DNA of 64,000 nt, from assembly GCA_002787155.1 (NCBI GenBank), contig PCVY01000065.1, forward strand, positions 65,286 through 129,285, read 5' to 3'. How positions within the stretch are numbered: the first letter of the stretch is position 1; every line of letters begins with the position of its first letter. The DNA is from Candidatus Abzuiibacterium crystallinum (GTDB taxonomy: Bacteria > Omnitrophota > Omnitrophia > Omnitrophales > Abzuiibacteriaceae). The translations under genes and the position numbers were made by a program. The notes below the pieces were generated by a model that saw only the letters and a list, made by a program, of their open reading frames with translations, had not been told where the DNA came from and made no database searches. Below, in pieces: positions 9,107 through 43,209 of the stretch.

Positions 9107-9135
9107 GGGGTCAGACCCGGGAGGGTCTGACCCCT
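9107..9135. repeat. Family A palindromic element (GGGGTCAGACCC / GGGTCTGACCCC hairpin), copy 1
   Basis: GGGGTCAGACCCgggaGGGTCTGACCCC: a 12-bp stem with a 4-nt loop, directly after the nuoN stop. Confidence 0.8.
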
Positions 9136-9167
9136 ATCGTCCACTATCTAACATAACAGAAACGGCT

Positions 9168-9263
9168 CTCGCCCGGCGGGCGAGGCAGAACCAACCCTAA
9201 ATAAAAAAGAGCTCGTCCGAAGTATCAGGGAGGTGAGTACTTCGAACGAGCTCTTATGTTTTA
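9168..9263. terminator. Bidirectional terminator region between the convergent nuoN and porin genes
   Basis: Tight GC hairpin CTCGCCCggcGGGCGAG (9168-9184). A long hairpin AAGAGCTCGTCCGAAGTA...TACTTCGAACGAGCTCTT (9207-9255) flanked by an A-run on one side and a T-run on the other. Confidence 0.7.
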
Positions 9264-9286
9264 AAGAACGCTAAATCTAAACTGCG

Positions 9287-10675
9287 TTAGAACTGATAAA
9301 TCATCTCAGCGCCAAAGGTGCTTTGCGTGCTTGATGCACCAGTACCAGTTGCTGCTGCAGTGCTCAAGTCAAAAATAGAATCTTGGCTCTTATCAAGACG
9401 CCATTCAAGACGGGTGAGTAAGTTATCAGCTACTTTGATATCAGCCGTATAAGTCATACCAAAAAGGTTGACACGCTCTGCGGTTGTGTACGTGCTGATT
9501 GAACCAAGGCGGACACCGTCGTTATCCGAAAACCATTCCAAACGGCCGGCAACTGTTAACCAATCGTTCACAGCATATTGAGCACCACCCATGACACCAA
9601 TCCATTGGGATGCCCCATTACCAACCACGCCGCCTGTGTTGTTTTCTTCCCAACCCCAGTCAAAATTACCGATAAGATTCAAAGCATCGCTGGCTGAGTA
9701 GCTCACAACCAAATCATACAAACCACGGATGTTGCTATCGGTGTTCAAGCCGCCGACTGTGCGGGTTTGTTCAGGACCCCAAAGCAAGCTGTTTGAAATA
9801 TCAATTGAATCCGTTGGGTGCAAGGTAATGTTGTAAAGACCGGTTTTTCCGCGATTGTTATCAACCGTGGTATCCCAGCCGTTGGCAAAACCAATCTTTA
9901 AATCCACCATGTCATTGAGACTGTACTCTGCCAAAATGCCGTTGTGGGTAAAAGGTTGGGCCAGGTTAAACAGATAGCCGCGTGAAGAATTGAAGTTTTC
10001 AGCGCTTTCAATGACTTCAGCGCCGACGATCGTACTAAAACGACCGACTTTGATGTCTAAGCCGTTACCAAGCGGGGCTAAGTATTCAATGTAAGCTTGT
10101 TGAATATAGAGATTATCATCTGCTTCAGCACCAGTCCCTGACACCATCGCAGAATTTAAGATGCGGGCTGTACGGCCGAATTGCCAATCCGTACGGAAAC
10201 CTGCACGGCTGCTTTCACTGACCGGTTTTTCAAACACGAATTCACCGCTGGTTTCAAAGCTGGCTTCATCGCGGTCAAATGCGCGAGTCACAAGCTCAGG
10301 ATTGGTACCACTAGCACCACCGTTATTGAGCGGATTAATGTTACTGACGTTATACAGCGTCGATAAGTAACCGCCCATGTGAATGTCGGACATGGTTTTA
10401 ACTAAACCTTCACCGGTTGGGGGCATATATTCTTTGCCCTTAACAGGTGAAAGGTGTTCTTTCATACCTGTCTTACTCTCAAGCTGTGCAACTTTGGATT
10501 CCAGAGCTTCGATTTTATCCATGAGCTTTTGGACGCTCACGTCAGCTTGGGCTGTGTTGAGACCGGTAAATGTGAATGCCACTAAGAGCACCAGCATCAC
10601 CGATAGCCATTTACAAGTTAGTTTGGATTGCATGATTCCCTCCCTTGTTTTGTTATCTAGTTGACTTTGAATCAA
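9287..10675 (-). CDS. Outer-membrane beta-barrel porin-like protein with an N-terminal coiled-coil segment
   Basis: Signal peptide from the internal Met (MQSKLTCKWLSVMLVLLVAFTFTGLNTAQA; start near 10633). A heptad-like KLMDKIEALESKVAQLESK segment, then alternating amphipathic strands. C-terminal ...MIYQF, an aromatic terminus typical of OMPs. Confidence 0.6.
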   Translation of the reverse strand: MIQSQLDNKTREGIMQSKLTCKWLSVMLVLLVAFTFTGLNTAQADVSVQKLMDKIEALESKVAQLESKTGMKEHLSPVKGKEYMPPTGEGLVKTMSDIHMGGYLSTLYNVSNINPLNNGGASGTNPELVTRAFDRDEASFETSGEFVFEKPVSESSRAGFRTDWQFGRTARILNSAMVSGTGAEADDNLYIQQAYIEYLAPLGNGLDIKVGRFSTIVGAEVIESAENFNSSRGYLFNLAQPFTHNGILAEYSLNDMVDLKIGFANGWDTTVDNNRGKTGLYNITLHPTDSIDISNSLLWGPEQTRTVGGLNTDSNIRGLYDLVVSYSASDALNLIGNFDWGWEENNTGGVVGNGASQWIGVMGGAQYAVNDWLTVAGRLEWFSDNDGVRLGSISTYTTAERVNLFGMTYTADIKVADNLLTRLEWRLDKSQDSIFDLSTAAATGTGASSTQSTFGAEMIYQF

Positions 10676-10940
10676 TAAACCAAGCCTTTTCTCTCAAGAA
10701 TGTTATTTAATATGCAAAATAAAGCCTGATAGCTGCTTCGTTATTAAATAACTTGCTCTGCATTAGAAAAAGCTTTTTGTGGTGCTCCCAGGTTCCCGAT
10801 TCCTGAGAACAACACTATTGTATTTAAAACTTGATTCTTGTACAGCTTTTTTTAAGGGGAGCTCCGCCCTTGTGTCGGCACAGATAGAGCGCACCTTGAA
10901 CTAAAGAACGGCACCTTTTGGCAAACCTTAAGAAAAAAAT

Positions 10941-11309
10941 TCAACTTTTTTCAAAAGCCCCTTGAAATAAGGAAAAATGGGGTTTTCCGCCGCCGTCTAA
11001 AATGATAGAAAGGACGTCAAACCGGGCCGGAGCGTCCAAAAGACGCCTCTCTTTCATGTAATATTCGGCCAATTGGGTCAGTTTTCTTTGTTTGACACGC
11101 CCAACCGCTTCCTCCGGCCTGCCAAAAATGAGGGAACGGCGGGTTTTCACCTCTATAAAGCAAATGATGCCCTTTTGGACAGCAACGACGTCAATCTCAC
11201 CTAAGGGTGTGCGGTAGTTAACTTCTTTTATGCGGTACCCTTGTTTTTTGAGGAATAAAACGGCAAGCGCTTCACCTTTCCTGCCTGTTTCTAAATGTTT
11301 GGCTTTCAT
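10941..11309 (-). CDS. yraN: YraN/UPF0102 family endonuclease
   Basis: 122-aa ORF with the UPF0102 signature (GEIDVVAV...FIEVKTR). Confidence 0.75.
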   Translation of the reverse strand: MKAKHLETGRKGEALAVLFLKKQGYRIKEVNYRTPLGEIDVVAVQKGIICFIEVKTRRSLIFGRPEEAVGRVKQRKLTQLAEYYMKERRLLDAPARFDVLSIILDGGGKPHFSLFQGAFEKS

Positions 11310-11351
11310 ATAGATGTAACAACAAAAAAGTTTTAGAATCCGTGTTTTCTC

Positions 11352-11972
11352 TTACGGAACGGTGTGACACCTGGCCACAGGCTCAAAACTGAACCGGTGA
11401 ATGGGGGAAGGGCCGTAAGCTGCCAATGCAGCTCGATGTAAGGCGGTCGCATAACCTTTGTGCTGAGAAAACCCATATTGAGGGTATAGTTTGTCATAAT
11501 CTTCCATCATTTTATCTCGCGTGACCTTTGCCACAATGGACGCTGCGGCAATGGAAATGCTTTTGCGGTCACCGTCTATAATCGGAACTTGCTCAATCTG
11601 TTTCGGCAAATCGTGAACACCATGAATCCCATCAATCAAAACCGCTTCGGGGGTCACGCTTAGTGTCAGAATGGCGTGGCGCATGGCTAAAAGAGAGGCT
11701 TGAAGAATATTGAGTTCGTCAATCAGCTTGCCGCTGATGACACCAACCCCGACACGGCCATGGGCCAATATTTCCCAATACTTCTCTTGACGTTTTTTGG
11801 GGGTCAGGGACTTTGAATCCCGGATCTTCTCTTCTTGAAAAAAGGGGGAATCGTGGGGAAAAACAACAGCGGCAGCGACAACCGGGCCTGCTAACGGCCC
11901 TCGTCCGGCTTCATCGACACCGGCAATGCGCCTTAGACCATTTTGAACAAACAGCGCTTCAAATGAATGCAT
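11352..11972 (-). CDS. rnhB: Ribonuclease HII
   Basis: GVDEAGRGPLAGPVV catalytic motif. 206 aa. Confidence 0.9.
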   Translation of the reverse strand: MHSFEALFVQNGLRRIAGVDEAGRGPLAGPVVAAAVVFPHDSPFFQEEKIRDSKSLTPKKRQEKYWEILAHGRVGVGVISGKLIDELNILQASLLAMRHAILTLSVTPEAVLIDGIHGVHDLPKQIEQVPIIDGDRKSISIAAASIVAKVTRDKMMEDYDKLYPQYGFSQHKGYATALHRAALAAYGPSPIHRFSFEPVARCHTVP

Positions 11973-12083
11973 TCACGTCCGCTTTCGTCCTTTATCGCGA
12001 CCAACGATATGTTAGGAGAAAGCCCGGCGTGAGTCAACCAAATAACCGATTAAGCATCTGGACATTCAGTCCCGTATGCTCAT

Positions 12084-12113
12084 CCGCCAGAGGACGGATT
12101 CGTCCTCTGGCGG
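12084..12113. repeat. Family B hairpin element, copy 1
   Basis: CCGCCAGAGGACggattcGTCCTCTGGCGG: a perfect 12-bp stem with a 6-nt loop. A second copy at 62805-62838 carries a compensatory change. Confidence 0.7.
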
Positions 12114-12134
12114 AGAGAGTTTTACTTCATACAC

Positions 12135-12166
12135 CTGGGAGTCAGACCCTCCTGGGTCTGACTCCA
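12135..12166. repeat. Family A palindromic element, copy 2 (variant GGGAGTCAGACCC / GGGTCTGACTCC)
   Basis: cctGGGAGTCAGACCCtcctGGGTCTGACTCCacg, about 10 nt downstream of the rplS stop. Confidence 0.8.
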
Positions 12167-12176
12167 CGTCCGTTAA

Positions 12177-12518
12177 TTAAGCAGTTCCTGCTTTTTTCTG
12201 ACGAAGATAATACAAACGTGAGCGCCGCACATTGCCTTTTTTAATAACTTTGATTTTCTCAATGCTGGGTGAATGCAGCGGAAAAATCTTTTCCACAATG
12301 TCACCGCGCGCATCACGCAGGACAGTAAAAGAAGCGCCCATGCCTTGTCCGCGGCGCCGAATGACGATGCCTTCGAATGACTGAAGGCGGGTTTTGTCGC
12401 CTTCTTTCACGCGAATAGATACTTGGACGGTATCTCCCGTTTTAAAATTAGGCAGATCTTTCTTTAAGTATGTTTTTTCAATCAGTTCTATTTTACTCAT
12501 GGTTTTTCCTCCCGACAT
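12177..12518 (-). CDS. rplS: 50S ribosomal protein L19
   Basis: The L19 sequence starts at the internal MSKIELIEK (near 12500), so the track ORF is probably over-extended at its N-terminus. trmD-rplS order is conserved. Confidence 0.9.
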   Translation of the reverse strand: MSGGKTMSKIELIEKTYLKKDLPNFKTGDTVQVSIRVKEGDKTRLQSFEGIVIRRRGQGMGASFTVLRDARGDIVEKIFPLHSPSIEKIKVIKKGNVRRSRLYYLRQKKAGTA

Positions 12519-13198
12519 CGGTCTCGTGATAATTTTAATAAATCTCGGCGGTATTTCTTAGTTAATCGCCATGCTTCCTTTGCCCGCCATGCTGCAATGG
12601 TTTCATGAACACCCGAACGCAACACCTCGGGCACCTTCCAGCCTTGATAGTCATGCGGCCGCGTATATTGCGGGTACTCCAAATGACCTTTATAAAAAGA
12701 CTCTGATTCTAGCGACTCATGATTACCTAAAACACCGGGCAACAACCGAACGGTTGCATCAATCACGCACATGACCGGCAACTCACCGCCGGTTAAAATG
12801 AAATCTCCGATCGAGATCTCTTCGTCTACCAAATGCTGATGAACTCTCTCATCAACCCCTTCATAATGGCCGCAAATAAAAACCAAATGTTTCTTGCGCG
12901 ATAATTTAACGGCTGTTTGGTGATTAAACTGCTTTCCTCTCGGTGAAAGCATCACCACATGGCGTCCCTTCTTCACAGCTTGAAGCGCTTGATGAATGGG
13001 TTCTATTTTCATCACCATGCCCGGCCCGCCGCCGAAAGGTTTGTCGTCGCAAGTCCGGTGTTTGTCATGTGTCCACCGTCTTAAATCATGAACTTTGATT
13101 TTGACCCGTTTTTTTTTCTGGGCCAAACGGATCATGGACTCACTCAGCGGACCATCAAACATTTTGGGAAAGAGCGTTAAGATATCTATTTTAAGCAT
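12497..13198 (-). CDS. trmD: tRNA (guanine37-N1)-methyltransferase
   Basis: 233-aa TrmD (MLKIDILTLFPKMF... with SPOUT-knot motifs) in its conserved position between rpsP and rplS. Confidence 0.9.
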   Translation of the reverse strand: MLKIDILTLFPKMFDGPLSESMIRLAQKKKRVKIKVHDLRRWTHDKHRTCDDKPFGGGPGMVMKIEPIHQALQAVKKGRHVVMLSPRGKQFNHQTAVKLSRKKHLVFICGHYEGVDERVHQHLVDEEISIGDFILTGGELPVMCVIDATVRLLPGVLGNHESLESESFYKGHLEYPQYTRPHDYQGWKVPEVLRSGVHETIAAWRAKEAWRLTKKYRRDLLKLSRDRCREEKP

Positions 13199-13473
13199 TA
13201 ACCAAACCTCTGGGTACCAAAAAGAAGACTGCCTGTCGTTCTCCTGTCATTGCGAACTCCACGAAGTGGAGCGCGGCAATCTTAGATCTTGAGTTTGCAC
13301 GCGCGCTTTTTGCAGGCGCCGATGCGCCAGCACTAATCGTGGGCAACTTGACGTTGCCCTACGATTATGTGCGCGAGTACTTTTCGGGATGAGCTTGTTG
13401 CTCATCTCCGAAAGTGCCACGTCCCCGCCAAGAATCGTGGCGGACTCCCCGCAATGACGAATAAAAACTTTCT
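13199..13473 (-). other. 275-nt non-coding spacer between rpsP and trmD, where rimM is usually found
   Basis: No ORF of 60 aa or more on the operon strand. GC content is visibly higher than the flanks. Several local hairpins are present (CTCCACgaagGTGGAG, GGCGCcgatGCGCC, GGATGAGCttgttGCTCATC). Confidence 0.4.
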
Positions 13474-13725: not shown

Positions 13726-13747
13726 GTTTACCTCCTCTTCTTCAAAT

Positions 13748-15013: not shown

Positions 15014-15017
15014 CTGC

Positions 15018-27260: not shown

Positions 27261-28463
27261 TTAAGCAAACAATAACTCTCTCATTCTGGTGCGGATGTGA
27301 GCAGAGCTTGCTTTCCCTTGTTCTGTTGAACGGCCGATCCAGCCGCCGCCTAAGACGATATCACCGTCGTAAAGAACGCATGCTTGACCGGGTGTAATGG
27401 CGTCTTGCGGTTCACGAAAGTTCACCTGCACATGATCATTCGAAAGAAATGAAAGCGTGGCTTCAGCTTTTTGATGCCGCGAACGAATTTTAGCTTGAAC
27501 GTGGTTAGGATTAATTTGTTCCAACGGGACAAACCAATTGATTCTTTCAACTTCACACCGTTGACTATAAACATCCTCTTTGGGACCGACAATGACCAGA
27601 TTTTCTTCGGGCAGGATATCAATCACATAAAGTGCGTGCGGATGCGCAATGTTAAGTCCTTTGCGTTGACCAATCGTAAAATGATAATAGCCTGGGTGCG
27701 TTCCTAACACGCTGCCTTCTTTGTCTCTGACTTGACCGACGTCCTCAGAAGCAGCGGCAGAAACCGCGCCCTGTTTTTCAAGAAAAGCACCGTAATCATT
27801 GCTGGGGATAAAACAAATTTCCTGCGAGTCGGGTTTATTGGCAACGCACAAGCCGATCCGGCCGGCAATTTCGCGAATCGTTTGTTTGGTATATTGACCA
27901 ACCGGCAGTTCGAGATGACTTAAGACATCTTGTGATAGCGGGAATAAAACATATGATTGGTCTTTGGCCGCATCTAACCCCTGGGAAACGACAAAATGTT
28001 GTTTGTGTTTGTCATATTTCAATTGCGCGTAATGCCCTGTTGCAATTTTGTCGTATCCAAGTTCGCGGGCTCTTTGTAAAAACAATTTAAATTTGATGTG
28101 CTCGTTACAAGCAATGCAAGGATTAGGCGTGTTTCCCTTCATATATTCATCGGTAAAGTAATCGACCACGTGGGTTTTGAATTCTTTCTCAAAATTAAAT
28201 ACGTGATAAGGAATCTCGAGGCGTTCTGCTACATCGCGCGCATCTTCAACACCAATTACCCCGCAGCACGATTTGGTATTTTTTTCTTCACAGTCGCCGC
28301 TTGCCCACGTGCGAATGGTAGCGCCGCCCACTTCCCAGCCTGCTTGCTGCAGTAAGTAAGCTGCGACTGACGAATCAACGCCTCCGCTCATGGCAACCAA
28401 TATTTTCTTTTTCATAATAACAATCCTGAATCCTGGGGTCAGGTTAGGGTCTGACCCCATCAA
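27261..28463 (-). CDS. mnmA: tRNA-specific 2-thiouridylase MnmA
   Basis: PP-loop ILVAMSGGVDSSVAAYLL. The likely true start is the internal MKKKIL (near 28415). The track ORF extends into the family A repeat, translating it as GSDPNLTP. Confidence 0.85.
   Translation of the reverse strand: MMGSDPNLTPGFRIVIMKKKILVAMSGGVDSSVAAYLLQQAGWEVGGATIRTWASGDCEEKNTKSCCGVIGVEDARDVAERLEIPYHVFNFEKEFKTHVVDYFTDEYMKGNTPNPCIACNEHIKFKLFLQRARELGYDKIATGHYAQLKYDKHKQHFVVSQGLDAAKDQSYVLFPLSQDVLSHLELPVGQYTKQTIREIAGRIGLCVANKPDSQEICFIPSNDYGAFLEKQGAVSAAASEDVGQVRDKEGSVLGTHPGYYHFTIGQRKGLNIAHPHALYVIDILPEENLVIVGPKEDVYSQRCEVERINWFVPLEQINPNHVQAKIRSRHQKAEATLSFLSNDHVQVNFREPQDAITPGQACVLYDGDIVLGGGWIGRSTEQGKASSAHIRTRMRELLFA
28435..28458. 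repeat. Family A palindromic element, copy 3
   Basis: cctGGGGTCAGgttaGGGTCTGACCCC, between bioD and mnmA. Confidence 0.8.
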
Positions 28464-30766: not shown

Positions 30767-31945
30767 TTGATTTGCCGTGCGCTTCCTTTTATATATAGAC
30801 GCATGAAAACAATCAAATCGTTTCCCCAAGCGGCGTTTCAGAAGAAGCTGCTCAAATGGTATCAAACCTCAAAGCGCCCACTGCCATGGCGGCAGAAGAA
30901 AAGTGCTTATGGAACCCTGGTCTCAGAAATCATGCTCCAGCAAACGCAAATCAAAACCGTGATTCCTTATTACGGGCGCTGGCTTAAAACTTTTCCGACC
31001 ATTCAAAAACTGGCAAAAGCACCGCTTAGGAAAGTGCTTAAATTATGGGAAGGCCTGGGTTATTACTCGCGCGCTCGCAATCTTCACCGAACGGCTCAAA
31101 CAATTGACCGCCGATTCCAAGGACAAATTCCATCCGATCCGGAAATCCTGATGATGCTCCCCGGCATCGGACGCTACACAGCCGGCGCCATCGCAAGCAT
31201 TGCCTATGATCAACCGGTGCCTTTGGTAGATGGGAATGTCGCACGCGTATTTTCACGCATTTTTTTAATCAAACAAGATATTTTGAAACCGGAAACGCAG
31301 AAACTGCTTTACACGTATGCTTCCTCACTGGTTTCTTCAAAACAAGCAGGCAATTTCAATCAAGCTTTGATGGAATTAGGTGCTTTAATCTGTACACCTG
31401 CATTACCGGAGTGCTCGCTCTGCCCGGTTCGTTCCCTCTGCTGCGCTTATCAAAACGGCGTGCAAGAAACACTTCCTGTTCGATCAAAAGGTCCTCAAAA
31501 AAAGAAGGTGTTTTTGCAAGCAGCACTTCTGACACACCAAAACAAAATATTAGTTCAGGAACGTCCGGCAAAAGGTATTTGGGGTGGTTTGTGGGAGTTG
31601 CCTAACAGGCGCGTGAATGGCGAGCATGAACCCAGAAAATTTAAACGTTATTTAGAAAAACAATATCGTGTTTCTTTGGCGCCGACTTTTAAACGTTTAT
31701 CTTTAATGAAACGTGAACTCACGCATTTGTCCGTTGTGATTGAACCTTTTCAATTTCTGGTTAAAAAAACTGCTTTAAAACAAAGCGAAAAGCTGCGTTG
31801 GATATTGAAGCCTCATTTAAAATCCATTTCTTGTCCGGTCCCTTATCAGCAAATCCTTCAAAATCATTTTGAATCTAAAGTCTTGGGGTCAGACCCTGAC
31901 CTGACCCCAAGCAAAGGGTCTGACCCCGCGCAACCAAATGGATAA
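30767..31945 (+). CDS. mutY: A/G-specific adenine DNA glycosylase MutY
   Basis: HhH-GPD fold, 4Fe-4S loop CTPALPECSLCPVRSLC and a NUDIX-like C-domain. The last ~20 codons run through two family A repeats (…GSDPDLTPSKGSDPAQPNG). Confidence 0.85.
   Translation: MICRALPFIYRRMKTIKSFPQAAFQKKLLKWYQTSKRPLPWRQKKSAYGTLVSEIMLQQTQIKTVIPYYGRWLKTFPTIQKLAKAPLRKVLKLWEGLGYYSRARNLHRTAQTIDRRFQGQIPSDPEILMMLPGIGRYTAGAIASIAYDQPVPLVDGNVARVFSRIFLIKQDILKPETQKLLYTYASSLVSSKQAGNFNQALMELGALICTPALPECSLCPVRSLCCAYQNGVQETLPVRSKGPQKKKVFLQAALLTHQNKILVQERPAKGIWGGLWELPNRRVNGEHEPRKFKRYLEKQYRVSLAPTFKRLSLMKRELTHLSVVIEPFQFLVKKTALKQSEKLRWILKPHLKSISCPVPYQQILQNHFESKVLGSDPDLTPSKGSDPAQPNG
31883..31928. repeat. Family A palindromic elements, copy 4 (a full hairpin plus a half-site)
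   Basis: CTTGGGGTCAGaccctgaCTGACCCCAAG hairpin, then GGGTCTGACCCCgcgc. Located inside the 3' end of mutY and overlapping the ygfZ-like start. Confidence 0.8.
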
Positions 31946-32924
31946 ATTACTCCTGGAACAATATGACAACACGGCCAAGCATGGCGCTATTTTTGATGTC
32001 TCCGCACGAGGGAAAATAGAACTGTCAGGCGAAGACGCAGTTTCTTTTCTGCATCGGATGATCACCAATGACATTGAGCATTTAGGTGCTGGCAGCGGCT
32101 GTTACGCTTGCTTTCTCACCAATCAAGCCAAAGTGATTGCCGACATGAATGTTTTTGTCTTAGAGAAAACCGTTTGGCTTGACGTTGAGCCGGGTTATCG
32201 AACCAAAGCCATCCAAGCCCTCGAAAAATTCGTTTTAATGGATAACGTTAAAATCGAAGACAAAACTGAAGCCTTTTCAAGCCGCTTACTATTTGGCCCC
32301 AAAGCACAGGTCTTTTTGCAGATGATGACCAAAACAACCGGTTATCCTGATCAGCCTTTTCGGCATCTTTGCTCTAAAATCAAAGACATGGGCTGCCATA
32401 TTATTTGCTTACCCGTGTTTGGCAGCCGCGGATGGCTTCTTGTTTTCCCGAAGGAAAGTTCTGATTCCTTTCATCAAATGCTCGCTCAGGCCGCCGCTTC
32501 ATTTGACATTCAACCGATGCCAGGCGAAATAGCTGAGATTTTGCGGGTGGAAAACGGAGTGCCCCGGTTTGGCGTTGATTTTGATGAAACCACGATCGTA
32601 ATGGAAGCTGGGATTGAGGATCGGGCAATCAGTTTTGATAAAGGCTGTTACCCCGGTCAGGAGTTGGTCGCACGGATGGACAGCCGGGTTAAGTTTGCCA
32701 AGAAATTAACCATGCTTGTTTTAAATGATGAGCAAATACCTCGCGCCAATGACCCGATTCAAAAAGAAGGCAAACACATCGGTAGAATCACCAGTGCTGT
32801 CTTTTCGCCCAAACTGATGAAACCTGTTGCACTTGGTTTTGTCATGCGGGATTATTTAATTAATGGTAACGAAGTGGAAATCATTTCTGACGGTAAGCCT
32901 TGCCGTGCCAAATTAAAAATCTAG
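31938..32924 (+). CDS. ygfZ: Folate-binding GcvT/YgfZ-family protein
   Basis: 328-aa aminomethyltransferase-fold protein (…ARGKIELSGEDAVSFLHRMITND…), matching tRNA-modifying YgfZ-like proteins. Confidence 0.7.
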   Translation: MDKLLLEQYDNTAKHGAIFDVSARGKIELSGEDAVSFLHRMITNDIEHLGAGSGCYACFLTNQAKVIADMNVFVLEKTVWLDVEPGYRTKAIQALEKFVLMDNVKIEDKTEAFSSRLLFGPKAQVFLQMMTKTTGYPDQPFRHLCSKIKDMGCHIICLPVFGSRGWLLVFPKESSDSFHQMLAQAAASFDIQPMPGEIAEILRVENGVPRFGVDFDETTIVMEAGIEDRAISFDKGCYPGQELVARMDSRVKFAKKLTMLVLNDEQIPRANDPIQKEGKHIGRITSAVFSPKLMKPVALGFVMRDYLINGNEVEIISDGKPCRAKLKI

Positions 32925-32944
32925 GGGTCAGACCCCGCGCCGCG
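32924..32944. repeat. Family A element, copy 5 (GGGGTCAGACCCC followed by GCGCCGCG)
   Basis: Palindromic GGGGTCaGACCCC between the convergent ygfZ-like and giant-protein stops. Like the copy-4 half-site, it shares the GACCCCGCGC extension. Confidence 0.7.
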
Positions 32945-32946
32945 AC

Positions 32947-35900
32947 TTAAGCCATTTCGGCAATCCGGCTCCATGATCGGATCTCCCGATCGAGAATATC
33001 AGCCAAACCGGCAATGCCTGATCTTAAATTTTTGATGGTGTTGTCTGAAAGTGTAATAATGCGATCGTAAAACTCGGACAACCGGGAATTGGCAAGTGTT
33101 GTTCTGGTCAATAGAGTGAGTCGCTTAGCACCACTCGCACGTAACTTGACGGCCAAAGCTTGAGGTGTTTTGGCAAAAACGATTTTTCGGTCTTCCGGAA
33201 GCATCGCATTGGCATTTTGAATCAATTCTAATTCGGAACCGGTCGTATAAACCACGCCTATCAATGTGCCGCTGTGTGCTGCTTCGGTTGCTAAAGCAAA
33301 AAGCCCGTCCCCAAAAGCAACGCTCCAGTCAAAAACAGTTGCTTGTGATTGGTCAAGCGTGGCACTGATGCCAAGTCGATCATAAAAATAAGATTTGGCA
33401 CTTGGATTTTGGTCAAACAAAGCATGAGCTTGTTCTACCGCGCGGGCAAATTGTGTTCTATCATTGGCGGATTCCGGCAATGCGATTCTTAACTCAGCTC
33501 GTTCATCAACATTCGATGCCGCGCGTGCTAGCTGGTGTGTAACGGTTGCAATGAGCCGGTCACCTTCATTTGGCGCATTTGTAATGGCTTTTGACACTGC
33601 TTGCACGAAACGCGCGGGCACTCTTCTCTCAATAAGGGCGGCCGCCCATTCGCCGATCGCAAACGCCCAAGCACGCCAATCATCGGCAGGAATGGTTGTC
33701 AAAGCATCAACCAATGTGCGCTTTCCGGCATCTTTCATGATTTCAGATTGAATGATTTGGAAAGTAATTTTGTCACCCACTGAAGCTGCTGCCGCTAATT
33801 GCAGCACCCACGCCCAAAGGCGGTTGGTAATATCGCCAGGCGTTTGGTTGGGAAGTTCTTTGGTGCGGATAATTCCAAACTCTTTCCATTCATTGTAATC
33901 GATAGAACCATCTTCGCTCATGGCATATAAAATAAGCAAATAACCAAACGCCCATATTTCAAATTCAGTTTTCGGCATATCCGCTCTCGCCATCACGTCT
34001 TCTATTTGATAAAGCCAAGGACCAAATAAGTTTTCTCGTAAAGGCGCCCGGCCTCTGGCTTGGAATTCGGCCAAAGCCATTCTGCCGATTAACCATCGCC
34101 GCCAACTTTGGAACGATTCTTCAGTCAGTCTTTCAATATCCTGTTTCATAAAATCTTTGATTTGAGAATAAATTCGGTTGCCATTCCCGGCAGCAACCAA
34201 TAAAGCAACGCTTGCGCTGTAAGCACGCAGTTTAATTTCCTCTTGCGTGTTACCCGGCATCGCTTTCATTGCTTCAAAAAACCGCCACACTTGCTTAGAC
34301 ACTTCTTTCTTATCGGTGTAATCGATCTCGCGCAGATTGATTACAAATTTTCCGCGCAGCTCAGAATGACCGGATCTTTTATTTCGTTTCATACGAAGCT
34401 TATATTGGAGATCGGTTTGAATACCGATGGATACATACAATCTGTTTAATTCTTCTTTTGCCTTTTTAATTCTTACTTCGTCTTGATCAACTTCGGCTTG
34501 TACACGTTCTTCCATTAACGCCAACCACATTTTAACGACAATTGGAATGCCTGCTAAATAGCGTTCTCCAGTATGGACGTCATGTTCTAAATCAAGAATG
34601 ATTTCTTCATCCGCATCATCAGTGATGCTATTAATAAAGGCGCCCATCCGGGCATCTTCGATTTGCCTATCAAGACTCAGGTTGGTACGAAGAATTAAAA
34701 CTTGAACAATATTAAATTCATCCAAAATAGATTCGGCTAAATTTTCCTTGCTTGCCATTGTTCTTAAAGTTGCTAGTTTGGGCAAGATGCGATTTCTGGA
34801 TGTTTCGATAAGCTGCATCAAAGAAATTTGAGATTGAATGCGTAATTCTGCATGGCCGGAAGAACTTTCTTTTGATTCCGCGAGTTTGATACTGATACCA
34901 ACAATGCGGCCGGCGCCTGCAAAATCTCCCAAAAGAAGGACGGTTGGTTCTTTGCTGCCATTTTCTTTGACAACCAAACTGGTTAGTTCTTCATCCTGAA
35001 AGGATACGAATGTGCCATAAATGACACGATTCGTCGTTTGTCCATGCGCACGATAAAGCAATCGGATTGAATCGCCCGGTTTGAGCGAGTTCGCCAATAA
35101 AAATTCGGCATTAAGCGTTTGTTCGATATTCAGTCGAATTTTCTGATTTGACCGTATTTCAAAACGACGCACCTCGCCATCTTGACTGACAAAAGTGATT
35201 AGCACTTCTAAACCGGTTACTTTGTTCCGGTAATGCATCGCAGAACCGGGATTAAAATATGTTTGGCGGCCAGGGTCGACCAATGTTTCATTTTTGCCGT
35301 GATTGATATAAATTACTTCTAAATTGCGGGGTCGTACGCCTCGGTAGGGTTTGGGGAACTGAAAAACATTTTTATTGGCTCTGTTCTGAACAACGCCTAT
35401 GGGTAACAAAAAGTCTTGGTTAAAATTAATGGTCATCCATCGGTACGGCAAGGCAATGGTGGTTGAAAATTTTAATTCTGTTTGTTCTTTTTCATCTGAT
35501 TTTGTTTCAATTTCATCTTCAGCAGGTTTTTGACGCAATTCTGAATGAGTCGAAGCTGAGACGATTTTAGCAAGCACAATACCTAAGGCCCGAATTTCAC
35601 CGGTACCCTCAAAATCCTCCAAGGGGAATACGGTTGGAACGAGCTTATCATTTTCTTGAACCACTAAGTGATTGACCGTATCACCGATTTCGTAACTCAC
35701 AAAATGACCTTTAACGGGCCGGCCTTTGTTTTCTCCGTGCAAACGATAGAAGAAGTGAATTTCATCTCCCGATTTTAATGAATCAGCAAGCATGAAATCA
35801 ATATGCCGTGCTCTTTTAAATGTCAGGCGAATTTTTTTGTTAGATTTTATTTCAAAACGCCGGCCGGTATCGTTTTTTGAAACATATTCGATTGAAACAA

Positions 35901-37128
35901 CTAATCCTGTTGTTTTGTTTTCAATTCGTGCAGACTTGCCAACATTCACATAAACTTGCTCACCTAAAGCAGCGGGAATTTCTTTTCCCTCTACATTAAC
36001 ATAGATTAATTGAAGATCGGACCCAGGTCGGCGGTTTTTGGGATAGTTAAACAGCGTGACGGCTGTTTTCTTTGACTGGACAATGCCAAACGGTAATGTA
36101 AACTCGTCGCCGAAATTCACGCCTACCCATTCATGCGGAATGGTAATAAAAGCCGAAAAAGGTAACTGTATTTGGTCTGCAATGATTTCTTTATCCTTTT
36201 CTATGAAACGTAATTCTTGACGACTTAAGAGTTTTTGTTCGGCTGATTTTGCAGCTTTATTCACATCCTGATCAAAGAGGCCAAAGACACTTATTGTTTT
36301 TATCCAATCCCGCAACTCTGAACGTTCAAAAGTAACTTCAAAATCACCCATCATGAGCCGCCCGTCTGTAGCGGCAAAGCGCAAGCGATTACCGTTAATA
36401 TGTTTGAGAAGAATCGAAACACCCGCTTTCGAATCAACGGGTTGCTGGCGGCCTTTTAAATCAGCCAATTTTGAATCTCTTGAAGTAGTTATAAACGCTT
36501 CTGCCGCGGAAATTAACCAAGCCAATGCTGCTTGATTATCATCACGATCAACATCCAATAAAGTATAAAGCTGCGGATGTGGATTAAAACTTCCGGGAAT
36601 AAGCGCAAGTTTAAAAGGATACCTTTTCCTGGGCGGTAGATTTTGAGGCGGCGCTGTTTCTAGCGGAAGAAGTTCTTTTAAGATATCAAGAACAGTTCTC
36701 GGAATTCTTCCTTCAGAATTAATGATACCGGCTTTTTTCCAAGCTTTCCCTGCTGTTTGTACCTCTGAATCTTGAGGGGTAAGTTTATTGTGTACAAGAC
36801 CTCTTAGAATGCTGCGCTCTTCTTGTGTCAGCCCCACGAGCATCTGGTTGACTTGATTTTTTAAAGTCTCGCCTTCTCTTAATTCTGCTCTTAATTCAGG
36901 TGCCGTTTGTAAACGTGAAAGCGCTTCCATTGACCCTGTTTGTTGCAACCACCCATTGTTAATGAGCGTTTGCTGTCTGGCATGCGAAAATTCTTCACGA
37001 ATGGTTTGTGTAACGGTAGTAGGAACGTCGGAATATGCGATTGTCTCCGTCCAGCTAAAAGCCGCTACGAGCACAATGGCAATGGTTTTAAGAAGAATTG
37101 GGTTTGACTTCGTTTTTAGAAAGGACAT
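32947..37128 (-). CDS. Giant secreted protein (1393 aa) with two tandem ~210-aa internal repeats, function unknown
   Basis: Sec-type signal peptide. Repeats at about aa 322-532 and aa 553-763 (nt ~35533-36165 and ~34840-35472) share LP(F/I)G(I/V)VQ…(I/V)Y(V/I)N…KTTGL/KVTGL…RRFEI(K/R)SN(K/Q)KIRL…SLK(S/P)GD…HG…V(K/I)YGTFVS… at about 35-40% identity. The long C-terminal half is predicted to be helical. Confidence 0.7.
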   Translation of the reverse strand: MSFLKTKSNPILLKTIAIVLVAAFSWTETIAYSDVPTTVTQTIREEFSHARQQTLINNGWLQQTGSMEALSRLQTAPELRAELREGETLKNQVNQMLVGLTQEERSILRGLVHNKLTPQDSEVQTAGKAWKKAGIINSEGRIPRTVLDILKELLPLETAPPQNLPPRKRYPFKLALIPGSFNPHPQLYTLLDVDRDDNQAALAWLISAAEAFITTSRDSKLADLKGRQQPVDSKAGVSILLKHINGNRLRFAATDGRLMMGDFEVTFERSELRDWIKTISVFGLFDQDVNKAAKSAEQKLLSRQELRFIEKDKEIIADQIQLPFSAFITIPHEWVGVNFGDEFTLPFGIVQSKKTAVTLFNYPKNRRPGSDLQLIYVNVEGKEIPAALGEQVYVNVGKSARIENKTTGLVVSIEYVSKNDTGRRFEIKSNKKIRLTFKRARHIDFMLADSLKSGDEIHFFYRLHGENKGRPVKGHFVSYEIGDTVNHLVVQENDKLVPTVFPLEDFEGTGEIRALGIVLAKIVSASTHSELRQKPAEDEIETKSDEKEQTELKFSTTIALPYRWMTINFNQDFLLPIGVVQNRANKNVFQFPKPYRGVRPRNLEVIYINHGKNETLVDPGRQTYFNPGSAMHYRNKVTGLEVLITFVSQDGEVRRFEIRSNQKIRLNIEQTLNAEFLLANSLKPGDSIRLLYRAHGQTTNRVIYGTFVSFQDEELTSLVVKENGSKEPTVLLLGDFAGAGRIVGISIKLAESKESSSGHAELRIQSQISLMQLIETSRNRILPKLATLRTMASKENLAESILDEFNIVQVLILRTNLSLDRQIEDARMGAFINSITDDADEEIILDLEHDVHTGERYLAGIPIVVKMWLALMEERVQAEVDQDEVRIKKAKEELNRLYVSIGIQTDLQYKLRMKRNKRSGHSELRGKFVINLREIDYTDKKEVSKQVWRFFEAMKAMPGNTQEEIKLRAYSASVALLVAAGNGNRIYSQIKDFMKQDIERLTEESFQSWRRWLIGRMALAEFQARGRAPLRENLFGPWLYQIEDVMARADMPKTEFEIWAFGYLLILYAMSEDGSIDYNEWKEFGIIRTKELPNQTPGDITNRLWAWVLQLAAAASVGDKITFQIIQSEIMKDAGKRTLVDALTTIPADDWRAWAFAIGEWAAALIERRVPARFVQAVSKAITNAPNEGDRLIATVTHQLARAASNVDERAELRIALPESANDRTQFARAVEQAHALFDQNPSAKSYFYDRLGISATLDQSQATVFDWSVAFGDGLFALATEAAHSGTLIGVVYTTGSELELIQNANAMLPEDRKIVFAKTPQALAVKLRASGAKRLTLLTRTTLANSRLSEFYDRIITLSDNTIKNLRSGIAGLADILDREIRSWSRIAEMA

Positions 37129-37227
37129 GCGTCAACCATTCAAAAGCTGAAATAACTGGATCAAGCTTAACTGCTATGCCTCCTATTGTCAATATAAAAT
37201 GTTATAAAAGAATAATAAATGGAATTA

Positions 37228-37249: not shown

Positions 37250-37260
37250 AAAAGGCTGAT

Positions 37261-38838: not shown

Positions 38839-38918
38839 GCGGCCGGAAGTTGTTTTGTGAGCTGCATAAGGACTTTGCCTTCGAGTATTCGTCTAGTGCA
38901 CAGCGGCATATTCTGGTG

Positions 38919-39569: not shown

Positions 39570-39594
39570 ATTGCTTCTCCTCTCATCATTGATC

Positions 39595-40950
39595 TTATCC
39601 GATTACCACTTCTTCTTCCGCATATTCATAACTGGGTCCCCGTTTACGAGCCCAAAAAGCCAGCCCTAAGGTAAGCGGCCCGATACGTCCGACAAACATC
39701 AAAAAAATCGTCAATAACTTGCCCGGCGCAGACAGAACAGGCGTCACGCCGGTTGACAAACCGACGGTACCAAAAGCTGAGGTTGCCTCAAAAAAAAGAT
39801 CCAGAAAACCTCCTTTCGAAGCGGTATGAGAAATGCCGATGTGCTCTGTCACCTGATAAAGAAGGGTAGCGATACTAATTAAAACCAAAGCACTTGCAAA
39901 AACAGCTACCGCCCGCCCTACATTTTCTCTTGCAACATTGCGCCGAAAAATGGAAGCGGTGACTTTGCCCCGCATGTGGTTACGCACAAGTGCCGCTAAC
40001 ACCGCAAAGGTCGATACCTTGATACCGCCCGCGGTAGAACTGGGACAGCCTCCGATAAACATATAAAACACGATAAAGAAAAGGGTAGCGTTGGTCAAAG
40101 AAGCCGTGTGGATCGTGTTCAGACCTGCCGTGCGTGAAGTAACGGAAAGGAAAAAAGCGTTTATAATCTGTTCGTGCATCTTTAAGCCCAATAATAAATT
40201 TTGTCTTTCAAACAACCAAACTACCAAAGCACCCAATACAATTAAAACCGCACTGGTTACAAGGCAAATCCGTGTGTGTAAGCTGAGGCGCATGCGTTCT
40301 CCGTGCATGCGTTTGAACATCCACACCCGAAGCTCGTCAACTAGCATAAAACCAAGACCGCCCAGCACAATTAAGATCATAATGACCGACGGCAGATAAA
40401 TTTCTTTTTGAAAATGCATTAAACTATCTTCATACAAACTAAATCCTGCGTTACAAAAGGCGGATACCGCATGAAAAATAGACGAATAAAGTGCATAGGG
40501 CGCCGCATGGATCTCTTGAAGCCGAATATAAAGCAATGCTGCGCCCAATGTTTCAAAAGAGATCGTCATAAGAAAAACTGCTACTAAGACTGCTAATAAA
40601 TTACGTTTGTCGCCACGGTGAGGCTGGAATCCGACAGCATAGCGCGACGTCAATGTGACGCTGCGCCTTGCGACCAGCATGAAGAAAACGGAAAATGTCA
40701 TGATACCGAGTCCGCCGGCTTGCATCAAAGCAAGAATAATCAGCTGGCCGAATCGCGTCAGTTCCGTTCCAATATTAACAACACTCAAGCCGGTCACGCA
40801 AACCGCCGAGGTCGCCATAAAAAAAGCGTCTAGCCAACTAAGCGGCGCCTCGGCACTTGCATTTGGAAACATCAAAAGCAACGTGCCAAAGGCAATCACA
40901 CCTAAAAAGCTGAATGCAATCGTTTTGGCTGGGTTTAAGGTTGCTGTCAT
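39595..40950 (-). CDS. trkH: Potassium transporter TrkH/KtrB family
   Basis: 451-aa polytopic protein with repeated M1PM2 selectivity-filter-like GxG segments (TGLS, AGGL, GGCPSSTAGG, VGLSTG). Confidence 0.8.
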   Translation of the reverse strand: MTATLNPAKTIAFSFLGVIAFGTLLLMFPNASAEAPLSWLDAFFMATSAVCVTGLSVVNIGTELTRFGQLIILALMQAGGLGIMTFSVFFMLVARRSVTLTSRYAVGFQPHRGDKRNLLAVLVAVFLMTISFETLGAALLYIRLQEIHAAPYALYSSIFHAVSAFCNAGFSLYEDSLMHFQKEIYLPSVIMILIVLGGLGFMLVDELRVWMFKRMHGERMRLSLHTRICLVTSAVLIVLGALVVWLFERQNLLLGLKMHEQIINAFFLSVTSRTAGLNTIHTASLTNATLFFIVFYMFIGGCPSSTAGGIKVSTFAVLAALVRNHMRGKVTASIFRRNVARENVGRAVAVFASALVLISIATLLYQVTEHIGISHTASKGGFLDLFFEATSAFGTVGLSTGVTPVLSAPGKLLTIFLMFVGRIGPLTLGLAFWARKRGPSYEYAEEEVVIG

Positions 40951-41054
40951 AAAAAGACCATGGAATAAAGATGAGGGACGGTTTTTTTCAGGAACCGTCC
41001 CTATTTTTCTTTTACACCATTAAGTGATGACTTATGTTCTGGTGCACTTGTCAT

Positions 41055-43160
41055 TTAAAACAAATGATTCTGAGCAACAAATGATGCCAAGACAATGGCA
41101 ACCATCGACATCAATTTAATCAAGATGTTGAGAGAAGGCCCGGCTGTGTCTTTAAAAGGATCTCCTACCGTGTCACCCACGACCGCAGCTTTATGCGCGG
41201 AGGATCCTTTGCCGCCAAAATTACCTGCTTCAATATGCTTTTTCGCATTATCCCATGCGCCGCCGGCACTGGCCATCATGATGGCCAGTACAAATCCGCA
41301 CACGATACTCCCTAAAAGTAATCCGATGGTTGCTTCCACACCAAACAACCATCCAATAACAGCAGGCGCCAACAACGCTAGAATAGAAGGCAGCACCATT
41401 TCTTTTTGAGCTGCTTTGGTCACAATATCAACGCAGCGTCCGTTATCGGCCTCGGCTTTACCTTCAAGCAATCCTTTGATTTCTTTGAATTGGCGCCTGA
41501 CTTCTACGACCACCTGCTGAGCCGCGCGCCCCACCGCATCCATGGTTAAAGCACAAAAAACAAAGGGCAGCATGGCGCCGATAAAAAGCCCTACGATAAA
41601 ATTTGGATTTGTAATCGATAAACTCACCTGAAAACCCATTTTGATCACGAGATCTCGATAAGCAACCACTAATGCCAAAGCAGTCAAAGCAGCAGAACCG
41701 ATGGCAAAACCTTTTCCGGTAGCGGCTGTCGTATTGCCCAAACTATCAAGCGCGTCTGTTCGTTCCCTGACCTTCGGATCTAAATTCGCCATTTGTGCAT
41801 TGCCGCCGGCATTATCGGCAATCGGCCCATAAGCATCGGACGCTAATGTAATACCGAGTGTCGAAAGCATCCCCACTGCTGCGATCGCAATGCCGTAAAG
41901 ACCTTTTTCAAATTCCAGCTTGCCTCCTGAAAAATAGAAAGCAGCTAAAATACCAACAGCCACAAAAATAACAACCGGTGCTGTTGAAAGAAATCCGACG
42001 CCCAAACCGCGAATAATAACGGTAGCCGGTCCGGTTTGTGCACTTTCGGAAATAGAACGCGTCGGCCCATAAGTGTCCGAGGTAAAATACTCAGTGGCGA
42101 AACTAATGAGAAGCCCGACTACAAGACCCGTCACAATAGCCCAGAAGATTCCAATATTTTCCGCACCCATGACGTGGCGAACCATAAAAAATGAAAATAA
42201 AACGATAAACCCGCTGCTCGCAATAACACCGCTTCTGAGCGCTTTCAACAACTCGCCTTGATTGACGGTTTCTTTTGTTCTCACAAAGAAAAATCCGATG
42301 ATGGAAGCTAAAATGCCGCAAGCGGCAATACCGATCGGAAGCAGCATGCCGCTCAAACCAAAACCAGCGCTAACAGAAAGTGCTACCGCTGCAATAATAG
42401 AACCGATGTAGGATTCAAATAAGTCAGCGCCCATACCAGCCACATCACCAACGCAATCTCCGACGTTATCGGCAATGACCGCAGGGTTTCGGGGATCGTC
42501 TTCCGGAATGCCGGCTTCTACTTTCCCTACCAGATCGGCGCCAACATCCGCCGCTTTGGTAAAAATACCGCCGCCCACACGCGCAAAAAGTGCTTGAGAG
42601 CTAGCGCCGATTCCAAACGGCAGGATGGTTTGCGAAAGAAGAAGCAGGCGATCAGCTTCGGTTAATTCGCCGCTGCCCATGAAATAATGATTTAATGCGA
42701 AATACCAACCCGTCACATAAATGACCCCGAGGCCTACAACGGTAAAACCCATCACGGCACCGCCTGAGAAAGCGACGCGGAGGGCTTGATTTAAGCTGGT
42801 AATCGCCGCATGCGCTGTCCGGCTGCTGGAACTGGTTGCGATAGTCATTCCAATATATCCGGCTAAAGCCGAAAATAAACCGCCGATTAAAAACGCAAAT
42901 GGGACAAAAATAAGGAAGTATCCTTGTGAAGACAAATAAAGCAGGATAATAAAAACAACCGTGAAAAAAACAGACACCCCGATATATTGGCGGCGTAAAT
43001 ACGCGCGTGCACCCACTTTTACCGCATTGGCAATATGGCGCATTCGCTCATTGCCATCCGGACTCCAAAAAATGCGCATCATGAGATAAACTGAAAAACC
43101 CAGCGCCAAAAACCCGCTCAATAAGCCGCTCACGGCGAGCCAATCGGTTGTTATTTGCAT
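41055..43160 (-). CDS. hppA: Membrane-bound proton/sodium-translocating pyrophosphatase
   Basis: Diagnostic H+-PPase motifs GGG(I)[16 protein letters not shown] and DNVGDCVGD(V)[11 protein letters not shown]. 701 aa. Confidence 0.9.
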
Positions 43161-43179
43161 ACGACTCTCCCTGTCATTA

Positions 43180-43209
43180 GGGGGCCAGACCCTAACCTGA
43201 CCCTCAGGT
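43180..43209. repeat. Family A palindromic element, copy 6 (variant)
   Basis: GGGGGCCAGACCCTAACCTGACCCTCAGG. Its reverse complement contains GGGTCAGGTTAGGGTCTG, identical to the core of copy 3. It lies downstream of cysK. Confidence 0.7.

Follow-up and report, generated by a model that had tools for sequence, protein, structure and literature searches.

TIRtrons, with their TIRYT transposases, are marked by the TIR motif GGGGWSAS, a tag that has been published for about two dozen of them, and their TIR families include single, dimeric and clustered repeats (Di Nocera et al. 2013, PMC3733652). They have been equated with subclass 2.1 of the TnpA(REP)-like class, and genes of this subclass have been described as having no REP-like secondary structures nearby (Quentin et al. 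2018, PMC6006769). The REPIN and REP/BIME sequences of Pseudomonas and E. coli are inverted doublets of short palindromes, extragenic and near stop codons, which occur far above chance frequency and are linked as a repeat class to a single-copy HUH Y1 transposase with the same repeats flanking its gene (PMC3116915, PMC2817692, PMC3479197). In-frame, translated insertions are known for Rickettsia palindromic elements (RPEs) and for some GTAG/CGTC REPs (PMC3733652).

The repeats analysed here lie in a 64-kb stretch of DNA (the window) from a Candidatus Omnitrophica MAG, a group mentioned in neither PMC3733652 nor PMC6006769 according to text searches. They resemble the REPIN and REP/BIME sequences in the above respects, the link to a Y1 transposase gene being one that other bacteria show, and the proposal of an earlier note that they are REP/BIME-like stands as to kind, given that they are short, extragenic, palindromic and multi-copy inverted doublets with ends matching the flanks of RAYT-like genes. 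However, they are not canonical REPs, because the 5' GTAG or CGTC at the stem foot is absent and the tag is GGGGTCAG instead, leaving the TIR repeats of TIRtrons as the closest published class. We favor the view that the repeats are REPIN-like, non-autonomous inverted dimers of TIRYT-type ends that were probably mobilised by a transposase, which would give a puzzling lineage-specific motif of an uncultured phylum a testable origin. The family is most likely a known kind of element, now in a new lineage.

Six loci and their repeat units

Searching both strands of the window for GGGGTCAGACCC with at most one mismatch gave 10 matches against 0.08 ± 0.31 expected from 100 dinucleotide shuffles, while GGTCTGACCC at the same stringency gave 16 matches against 1.47 expected. 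The motif family described by the earlier note is therefore real and lies where the note had placed it, although the seven or more loci counted there become six because 31883-31912 and 31917-31928 belong to one compound element. No additional copy was found in the flanking ~8 kb on each side of the window, bringing the count to six loci for ~80 kb; they are confined to 34 kb, and the density of about one locus per 11-13 kb is modest. Canonical REPs and REPINs, by comparison, exceed 100 copies per genome. The family consists of one single unit, four dimers and one dimer-plus-unit compound, with a monomer of 13 nt, dimers of 24-28 nt with loops of 3-8 nt, and an overall size range of 13-43 nt. 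Such units are extremely short in comparison with TIRtrons, and Pseudomonas REPINs are several-fold longer than the dimers here. MITEs are 50-500 bp in length and possess TIRs and target-site duplications; by contrast, no direct repeats were visible at the element flanks of the six loci, where the 5' flanks AACAT, GACGT, TTGAT, GTCTT, ATCTA and CATTA are each followed by GGGG.

Two of the dimers are of type I. The plus-strand copy at 9107..9134 reads GGGGTCAGACCC-GGGA-GGGTCTGACCCC with perfect 12-bp arms, and sits 5 nt past the nuoN stop in the convergent spacer between nuoN and a porin gene, upstream of a terminator at 9200-9262. The minus-strand copy at 12138..12165 (GGAGTCAGACCC-AGGA-GGGTCTGACTCC on the rplS sense strand) sits 11 nt past the stop of rplS, a gene identified here together with rnhB, and both of its arms carry a complementary G>A / C>T change so that pairing is still perfect. 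Type II is represented by the minus-strand dimer at 28435..28458, which reads GGGGTCAGACCC-TAAC-CTGACCCC on that strand with two GGGGTCAG tags facing outward and an 8-bp stem. This dimer lies upstream of mnmA and 21 nt past the bioD stop; if the mnmA ORF is taken at its longest, the two overlap, but the mnmA family match begins only at residue ~18-20. The compound element at 31885..31927 (plus strand), in the 3'-terminal part of the mutY ORF (30767-31945), is composed of the type II dimer GGGGTCAGACCCTGACCTGACCCC (31885-31908), AAGCAAA and a third unit, GGGTCTGACCCC (31916-31927). The single 13-nt unit GGGGTCAGACCCC at 32924..32936 (plus strand) occupies most of a 22-nt convergent spacer, its first G being the last base of the TAG stop of a ygfZ-like gene, and has the 3' flank GCGC in common with the unit at 31916-31931, GACCCCGCGC being found at both 31922 and 32931. 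The last copy, at 43181..43204 (plus strand), is a decayed dimer of type II, GGGGCCAGACCCTAACCTGACCCT, which departs from the 28435 and 31885 copies by two substitutions. It lies between cysK and the H+-PPase gene, 47 nt from the stop of the former and 20 nt from the ATG of the latter, and its sequence is identical in three independent assemblies. The type II 24-mers at 28435 (minus), 31885 (plus) and 43181 (plus) differ by 1-3 bases, loop included, and the type I loops on the sense strand are GGGA and AGGA; the copies are related in loop as well as stem sequence, beyond merely all being hairpins. Rfam and tRNA scans gave no match.

A short conserved motif in inverted pairs past genes is also what DNA uptake sequences would present, as in Neisseria with its inverted DUS pairs in terminators, and the window encodes T2SSE/PilT-family genes (PilT-type ATPase). 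Nevertheless, uptake sequences are a scarcely credible explanation: DUS and USS in Neisseria and Haemophilus occur at roughly one per kb, against one per 11-13 kb here, full copies are confined to spacers and one ORF end rather than occurring in ordinary coding sequence, several copies are degenerate, and the motif is also present in unrelated phyla, where it flanks transposase genes.

Hairpins at gene ends

RNA folding separated the copies into two groups. Strong hairpins, from −26.6 to −29.9 kcal/mol with z-scores of −4.6 to −5.2, were predicted at 9107-9134 (−27.8 kcal/mol, z −4.76), 12138-12165 (−26.6 kcal/mol, z −5.15) and 31885-31927 (−29.9 kcal/mol, z −4.55), whereas the 28435-28458 region folded at −19.6 kcal/mol (z −2.1), the 32924-32936 unit gave a weak fold only (z +0.6) and the 43181-43204 copy no significant fold (z 0.0). 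Thus, the idea that every copy is a perfect or near-perfect hairpin applies to the first three, while the other three are truncated or decayed. Coding density in the window is 92% (~8% non-coding), yet five of the six loci are non-coding and the sixth falls in the last ~20 codons of an ORF. Among 55 successive-ORF junctions, copies occupy 2/5 convergent, 4/45 tandem and 0/5 divergent ones; little can be made of the location at gene 3' ends, since 50 of the 55 junctions are tandem or convergent anyway. The stronger claim that all copies immediately follow stop codons was borne out for nuoN, rplS, bioD and the ygfZ-like gene (5, 11, 21 and 0 nt, respectively) and not for the copy inside the mutY ORF or the one 47 nt past cysK.

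GC-rich stem-loops directly past genes are shared with intrinsic (Rho-independent) terminators, and the earlier note had raised a lineage-specific terminator motif as its second possibility while observing that most copies have no U-tract. In fact, all six lack one in the sense orientation of the gene upstream, and among the copies a terminator scanner flagged the one at 9107-9134 alone, on its antisense side. Because sense-strand U tracts are missing and a canonical bidirectional U-tract terminator is found at 9200-9262, ~70 nt beyond the nuoN copy, the repeats are not this genome's terminators. The presence of one copy within mutY also fails to support that role, and, different from intrinsic terminators, sequence as well as structure is conserved across the loci.

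A broader version of this explanation is that the hairpins are host-evolved RNA elements, either terminators without U tracts or mRNA 3'-end stabilisers, kept by selection at each gene end and similar to one another through local duplication or convergence. The three very stable hairpins, the positions 0-21 nt past stops at operon ends (nuoN, rplS), the shared orientation relative to the upstream gene of both type I loops and of two of the three type II copies, and the perfect pairing kept at 12138-12165 via a change on both arms are in its favor. We consider such an origin unlikely because, apart from the absent sense-strand U tracts and the canonical U-tract terminators in use in this genome, three of the six copies have no significant fold, termination at the mutY copy would be harmful, given that the ygfZ-like start, which overlaps mutY and is translationally coupled to it, follows at once, the loops and flanks show a conservation across loci that terminators do not need, and transposase genes elsewhere have this end sequence at their flanks. 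A secondary, exapted RNA role is compatible with these observations, but a host RNA element as origin is not. The paired change on the two arms at 12138-12165 suggests that this hairpin is under selection or was repaired from a template, which counts against the transposon-end view in that it also fits a purely structural role.

The mutY copy and comparison with relatives

At 31883..31942 (plus strand), mutY has an element-derived, in-frame 3' extension encoding ...V LGSDPDLTPSKGSDPAQPNG. Comparison of C-termini and junction DNA showed that MutY of the nearest relatives (L134, L136 and L138) stops at the position of ...FESK in the window, where ~57 extra in-frame nucleotides supply about 22 additional MutY residues. 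The 8-nt overlap of mutY with the ygfZ-like ATG (31938) is retained, and the two genes overlap by 8-11 nt in L134 and L138, where they adjoin. The syntenic loci of the same three relatives (15-21 kb each) contain zero copies. The element at mutY/ygfZ is a clean insertion, and the extended MutY is probably functional. Presence/absence polymorphism was not seen, ten assemblies being identical at the 31885 and 32924 sites and three at the 43181 site; the database relatives are distant, with the next ygfZ homologue 50% identical. Scanning of metagenomes with a type II 23-mer gave 0 matches, indicating that the metagenome collection does not include this organism.

Like RPEs, the mutY copy is in frame and translated. 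By contrast with RPEs, only one of the six copies is intragenic, it extends a C-terminus only, and there is no RPE sequence similarity. For genome annotation, it follows that such hairpins are not to be taken for terminators and that they may lengthen ORFs, as at mutY.

Transposase-gene flanks in other bacteria

The outer 8 nt of the repeat, GGGGTCAG, form the outer end of every intact unit and fit the published TIR consensus GGGGWSAS, which has 16 matches in the window against 6.9 ± 2.3 expected, 10 of the 16 belonging to the six loci. Occurrence as intergenic singles, inverted dimers and clusters is likewise in common with the TIR repeats of TIRtrons, and so is association with TIRYT-like genes in other bacteria. 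A tblastn search with an approximate E. coli RAYT sequence led to a Marinobacter locus (L109) whose ORF 1848-2546 was validated as PF01797 Y1_Tnp (E 2e-15) by Pfam, with REP_Tyr_transpos as its best NCBIfam match, just under cut-off (76 vs 80 bits); a match of the same probe in L021 was spurious. This ORF is flanked by GGGGTCAGACCCC dimers, and motif flanks are also present in L139-141, so that in Marinobacter RAYT-like Y1 (HUH) tyrosine-transposase genes lie between outward-pointing copies of the exact motif. A homologue with 48% identity in a Burkholderiales MAG (L091) is bracketed by AATCGGGGTCAGACC ... GGTCTGACCCCGATT, with one mismatch to the motif. Given that their end sequence is the same as the inverted repeats flanking tyrosine-transposase genes elsewhere, the Omnitrophica repeats are most likely tiny passive mobile elements.

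In a family survey of 80 metagenomic loci with transposase homologues (43-86% identity), outward GGG[GT][TA]CAG[AG] was found on 45 of 72 left and 47 of 74 right flanks (~63%), compared with ~0.03 per flank expected from the rest of the loci, with the left-flank heads at a distance of 58-160 nt (median 79) from the start of the gene. A GGGGWCAGA-type head is a common feature of the flanks across the TIRYT/TIRtron gene family, and the GGGGWSAS tag of about two dozen TIRtrons extends to most of 80 further metagenomic homologues. The possibility of one RAYT clade with the exact 12-mer throughout was rejected: the exact form is restricted to close Marinobacter relatives, and only the GGGGWCAGA head is shared by homologues further away. 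Counts of head-in versus head-out arrangement in the fetched loci are biased by locus selection and were left out of the argument.

Different from TIRtrons, no TIRYT gene is present in the ~80 kb of this genome that was read; the search for a RAYT gene that the earlier note had proposed, performed by tblastn with 23 family members, found no Y1/RAYT-like gene in that span. The ends here form perfect hairpins, whereas no REP-like structures were reported for subclass 2.1 (PMC6006769), and the related transposases fall just below the NCBI cut-off for RAYTs, which sets them apart from RAYT systems proper. That bearers of the tag can be perfect hairpin dimers places the TIRYT class closer to RAYT/REPIN systems than the literature suggests.

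If the repeats are REPIN-like dimers of TIRYT-type ends, each would contain between one and three short transposon ends, the outer 8 nt of such an end being GGGGTCAG. The ends of a dimer would point outward (GGGGTCAG...CTGACCCC), as if a deletion had removed the transposase gene between two TIRs and left a loop of 3-17 nt. The folded single-stranded ends would have been recognised by a transposase of the TIRYT type, whose gene would lie elsewhere in the genome or have been present formerly, and this enzyme would have placed copies of the mini-elements at new sites, cutting and joining single strands as IS200/IS605 and RAYT enzymes do. We know of no TIRYT member that has been studied biochemically, and the mechanism therefore rests on analogy. 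Insertions would persist only where harmless, either in the few bases that follow a stop codon or, in frame, where the C-terminus of a protein is dispensable. Inserted copies would be transcribed into 3'-UTR hairpins that may slow 3' exonucleases without acting as terminators, and the coexistence of perfect, compensated and decayed copies would fit an old family, or one that has ceased to be actively renewed. A more tentative extension, to which we give limited credence, is that GGGGTCAGA-headed ends define one superfamily of minimal REPINs (24-55 nt) across phyla, for which TIRYT/subclass-2.1 Y1 transposases are the mobilising enzymes, with the Omnitrophica copies either extending this system to a candidate phylum or representing orphan relics after transposase loss. 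If this were true, few known mobile DNA units would be as small as the Omnitrophica copies.

The same hairpin appears in many phyla among the genome matches listed, being multi-copy in Oxalobacteraceae, Alcaligenaceae, Marinobacter and Halomonas, and its flanking position prefers G/C in 112 of 144 of the genome matches listed and in 37 of 37 viral-contig matches. Such recurrence with a strong G/C preference, together with the 13-mer GGGGTCWGACCCC being a perfect palindrome around a central W, could also indicate sites for a sequence-specific DNA-binding protein, either a dimeric regulator of GGGGTC-W-GACCCC or, in analogy to E. coli BIMEs, a gyrase/IHF-like or nucleoid-associated partner. This is very improbable in view of the empty divergent junctions (0/5) and the lack of any promoter-region copy, of the variable dimers and truncated forms, of the absence of a regulon-like distribution, and of no candidate binding protein being linked to the copies; furthermore, the association with transposase flanks explains the cross-phylum recurrence.

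A string search of the literature for the motif returned nothing bacterial. Counting against the favored view, the shared tag is short (8-12 nt), and GC-rich perfect hairpins of the same composition also arise by chance. In viral contigs, the motif had 27 matches compared with 7, 7 and 0 for composition-matched control palindromes, roughly an at least 4-fold excess. The multi-copy "viral" matches that were checked (L228 and L230) are terminase-portal-capsid clusters of GC-rich bacteria.

A repeat family at six loci

Ten matches to GGGGTCAGACCC with at most one mismatch were found across both strands of the window, compared with 0.08 ± 0.31 in dinucleotide-preserving shuffles, and the shorter core GGTCTGACCC occurred 16 times versus 1.47 expected; one extra 8-mer match at 11800, within rnhB, is at chance level. 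The repeat family proposed in the earlier note is thus real, but the matches group into six loci, so its seven coordinates reduce to six. No further copies were present in the ~8 kb beyond either window edge. Copies 1 (9107-9134; GGGGTCAGACCC-GGGA-GGGTCTGACCCC) and 2 (12138-12165; + strand GGAGTCAGACCC-TCCT-GGGTCTGACTCC) constitute type I, with 12-bp arms and a 4-nt loop that, in the sense of the preceding gene, reads GGGA (copy 1) or AGGA (copy 2, − strand, the rplS sense). Type II is a near-identical 24-mer, loop included, found at 28435-28458 (copy 3; − strand GGGGTCAGACCC-TAAC-CTGACCCC), within 31885-31927 (copy 4; GGGGTCAGACCC-TGAC-CTGACCCC followed by AAGCAAA and then GGGTCTGACCCC) and, in decayed form, at 43181-43204 (copy 6; GGGGCCAGACCC-TAAC-CTGACCCT), and amounts to a bare pair of outward-facing GGGGTCAG octamers. 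Copy 5 (32924-32936) is a lone 13-mer palindrome, GGGGTCAGACCCC, sharing a GCGC 3' flank with the unit at 31916. Given their degree of sequence identity and the presence of truncated and mutated members, the copies look like descendants of one element and unlike independently selected hairpins. The 9107, 12138 and 31885 copies fold with energies of −27.8, −26.6 and −29.9 kcal/mol (z = −4.8, −5.2 and −4.6), while the remaining three (28435, 32924 and 43181) gave weak or non-significant folds; in the 12138 copy, G>A in one arm is offset by C>T in its partner, keeping the pairing.

The window has a GC content of 45%, and 92% of it lies within maximal ORFs. Spacers hold five of the loci and the sixth takes up the final 20 codons of an ORF; by junction type, copies were found at two of the five convergent junctions, four of the 45 tandem ones and none of the five divergent ones. 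That all copies lie immediately downstream of stop codons, as had been claimed, holds for nuoN (5 nt from the stop), rplS (11 nt), bioD (21 nt) and the ygfZ-like gene directly after mutY (0 nt, the last base of TAG being the element's first G), but not for cysK, at 47 nt, or for the mutY copy, which is inside the ORF. We also noted a 1393-aa ORF at 32947-37128 (− strand) that has no Pfam match and is conserved in all assemblies of the host species; no gene of comparable size stands at its position in the syntenic loci of the nearest relatives (L134, L136 and L138).

Copies and intrinsic terminators

A lineage-specific intrinsic terminator had been offered as one reading of the motif. However, none of the six copies is followed by a sense-strand U tract. 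The convergent spacer between nuoN and a BBP2-family porin gene holds a canonical bidirectional intrinsic terminator at 9200-9262, with a stem of ~18 bp and U tracts on both strands (UUUUUUAUUU on the − and UUAUGUUUU on the + strand; folds of −35.1 and −28.6 kcal/mol), indicating that this organism uses canonical terminators, and the nuoN copy lies upstream of it, within the 3' UTR. Moreover, the position of the mutY copy just before a coupled start codon makes it a poor terminator site. On these three observations, the copies are not the terminators. Rfam and tRNA scans returned no matches.

Three other inverted repeats were seen. In the nuoN/porin spacer, a GC-rich hairpin, CTCGCCCGGCGGGCGAG, at 9163-9187 separates the repeat copy from the terminator. 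Just downstream of the rplS copy, 12083-12114 forms a perfect hairpin of 14 bp (TCCGCCAGAGGACG/CGTCCTCTGGCGGA; −37.9 kcal/mol for the region, z = −7.2) that has no U tract and no second instance in the inverted-repeat list. A further perfect inverted repeat, of 22 nt (TAAGGGGACAACTCCCTTTTTC) and with arms 18 nt apart, occupies 44904-44965, on the downstream side of a small rpsU-like ORF that had not been called (about 45152-44980, − strand); the repeat is unique in the window, and its start, GGGGACAA, nearly fits GGGGWSAS.

An insertion at the mutY/ygfZ junction

The mutY ORF ends at 31945, and its MutY family match stops ~26 residues earlier. The nearest relatives have conserved gene order and ygfZ homologues of 45-50% identity; their MutY ends where that of the window reads ...FESK, and the mutY stop and ygfZ start overlap by 8-11 nt in L134 and L138. 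At exactly this junction the window carries ~57 additional nucleotides, made up of the element and translated in frame as LGSDPDLTPSKGSDPAQPNG, with an 8-nt overlap with the ygfZ-like start preserved. The mutY copy is therefore an insertion relative to the relatives, whose three syntenic loci (15-21 kb each) contain no motif copies. Independent same-species assemblies were identical at sites 4-5 (the 31885 and 32924 copies; 10 assemblies) and site 6 (the 43181 copy; 3 assemblies), so there is no sign of ongoing movement among them.

Relation to TIRYT-associated repeats

Scanning species-representative genomes for GGGTCAGACCC-N(0-30)-GGGTCTGACCC gave hairpins in many phyla among the matches listed; Oxalobacteraceae, Alcaligenaceae, Marinobacter and Halomonas carry several of them within 8 kb. 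The flanking pair was G/C in 112 of 144 among these listed matches, so their arms are the 12-mer found in the window. Loci of Halomonas (L069), Marinobacter (L109 and L065) and Alcaligenaceae (L115 and L042) hold very dense arrays of the same 13-mer, with as many as 14 half-sites per 8 kb; the spacers differ by lineage, that of Marinobacter having an inner hairpin, ACATTTGG...CCAAATGT.

In the Marinobacter locus L109, repeats lie on both sides of a 215-232-aa ORF matching PF01797 Y1_Tnp (E = 2e-15), whose best match is the NCBI REP-associated tyrosine transposase model, just below its cut-off (76 vs 80 bits). A 48%-identical homologue in a Burkholderiales MAG (L091) is bracketed by AATCGGGGTCAGACC / GGTCTGACCCCGATT; two unrelated lineages thus have transposase genes with the motif at their flanks. 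A PIN-domain gene at 2569-2955 (−) of L109 separates the transposase-like gene from the next repeat dimer. In a survey of 80 metagenomic loci with homologues of 43-86% identity, the exact 12-mer was confined to close Marinobacter relatives. When the two flanks of a gene are compared, their longest inverted match starts in most cases with GGGGTCAGA or GGGGACAGA, and outward GGG[GT][TA]CAG[AG] was found in 45 of 72 left and 47 of 74 right flanks, where the rest of the loci predicted ~0.03 per flank. Left-flank heads lie 58-160 nt (median 79) from the gene start; sequence past the head diverges, the commonest tails being GTAA (24 of 86), CCAC (19) and CCCC (5).

RAYT-like genes with terminal inverted repeats (TIRs) rather than GTAG REPs have been named TIRYTs, residing in TIRtrons; their TIRs share the motif GGGGWSAS and form moderately abundant families of singles, dimers or clusters (Di Nocera et al. 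2013, PMC3733652). TIRYTs have been equated with TnpA(REP)-like subclass 2.1, with the consensus quoted as GGGG[AT][CG]A[CG] and no REP-like structures found near its genes (Quentin et al. 2018, PMC6006769). Since GGGGTCAG fits the TIR consensus exactly, the window elements are best filed, on this sequence likeness, as new, unusually compact members of the TIRYT-associated repeats tagged with GGGGWSAS; such repeats had not been noted before in their phylum, Candidatus Omnitrophica. As in REPINs, two inverted ends together form the hairpin; unlike canonical REPs, the elements carry no GTAG/CGTC tag. The REP/BIME-like reading suggested earlier was right in outline.

Sequence similarity ties the copies together, at least one of them is an insertion that the relatives lack, and their shared end sequence is the one carried by a family of transposase genes. 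By analogy with IS200/IS605 TnpA and E. coli RAYT acting on their own hairpins, a TIRYT-type HUH Y1 enzyme would have copied the ends after recognising them as folded single strands. Purifying selection would then have spared only insertions hugging stop codons or lengthening a tolerant C-terminus, and, once transcribed, the hairpins may shield 3' ends. Given the decayed copies and the absence of a transposase gene within 80 kb of the host genome (the window and ~8 kb on each side), the family may now be inactive.

A scan of viral contigs returned 27 stretches for the motif versus 7, 7 and 0 for composition-matched palindromes, so the exact 12-mer hairpin is enriched but not unique. Short GC-rich "viral" contigs of IMG/VR carry 2-3 copies of GGGGTCAGACCC-GCA/TGC-GGGTCTGACCCC, with similar hairpins in L222, L225-L229, L232, L234, L236 and L245. 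Two annotated multi-copy contigs, L228 and L230, have hairpins among terminase, portal and HK97-type capsid genes and look like head-gene clusters (GTA or prophage) of GC-rich bacteria that have a family of this hairpin of their own.
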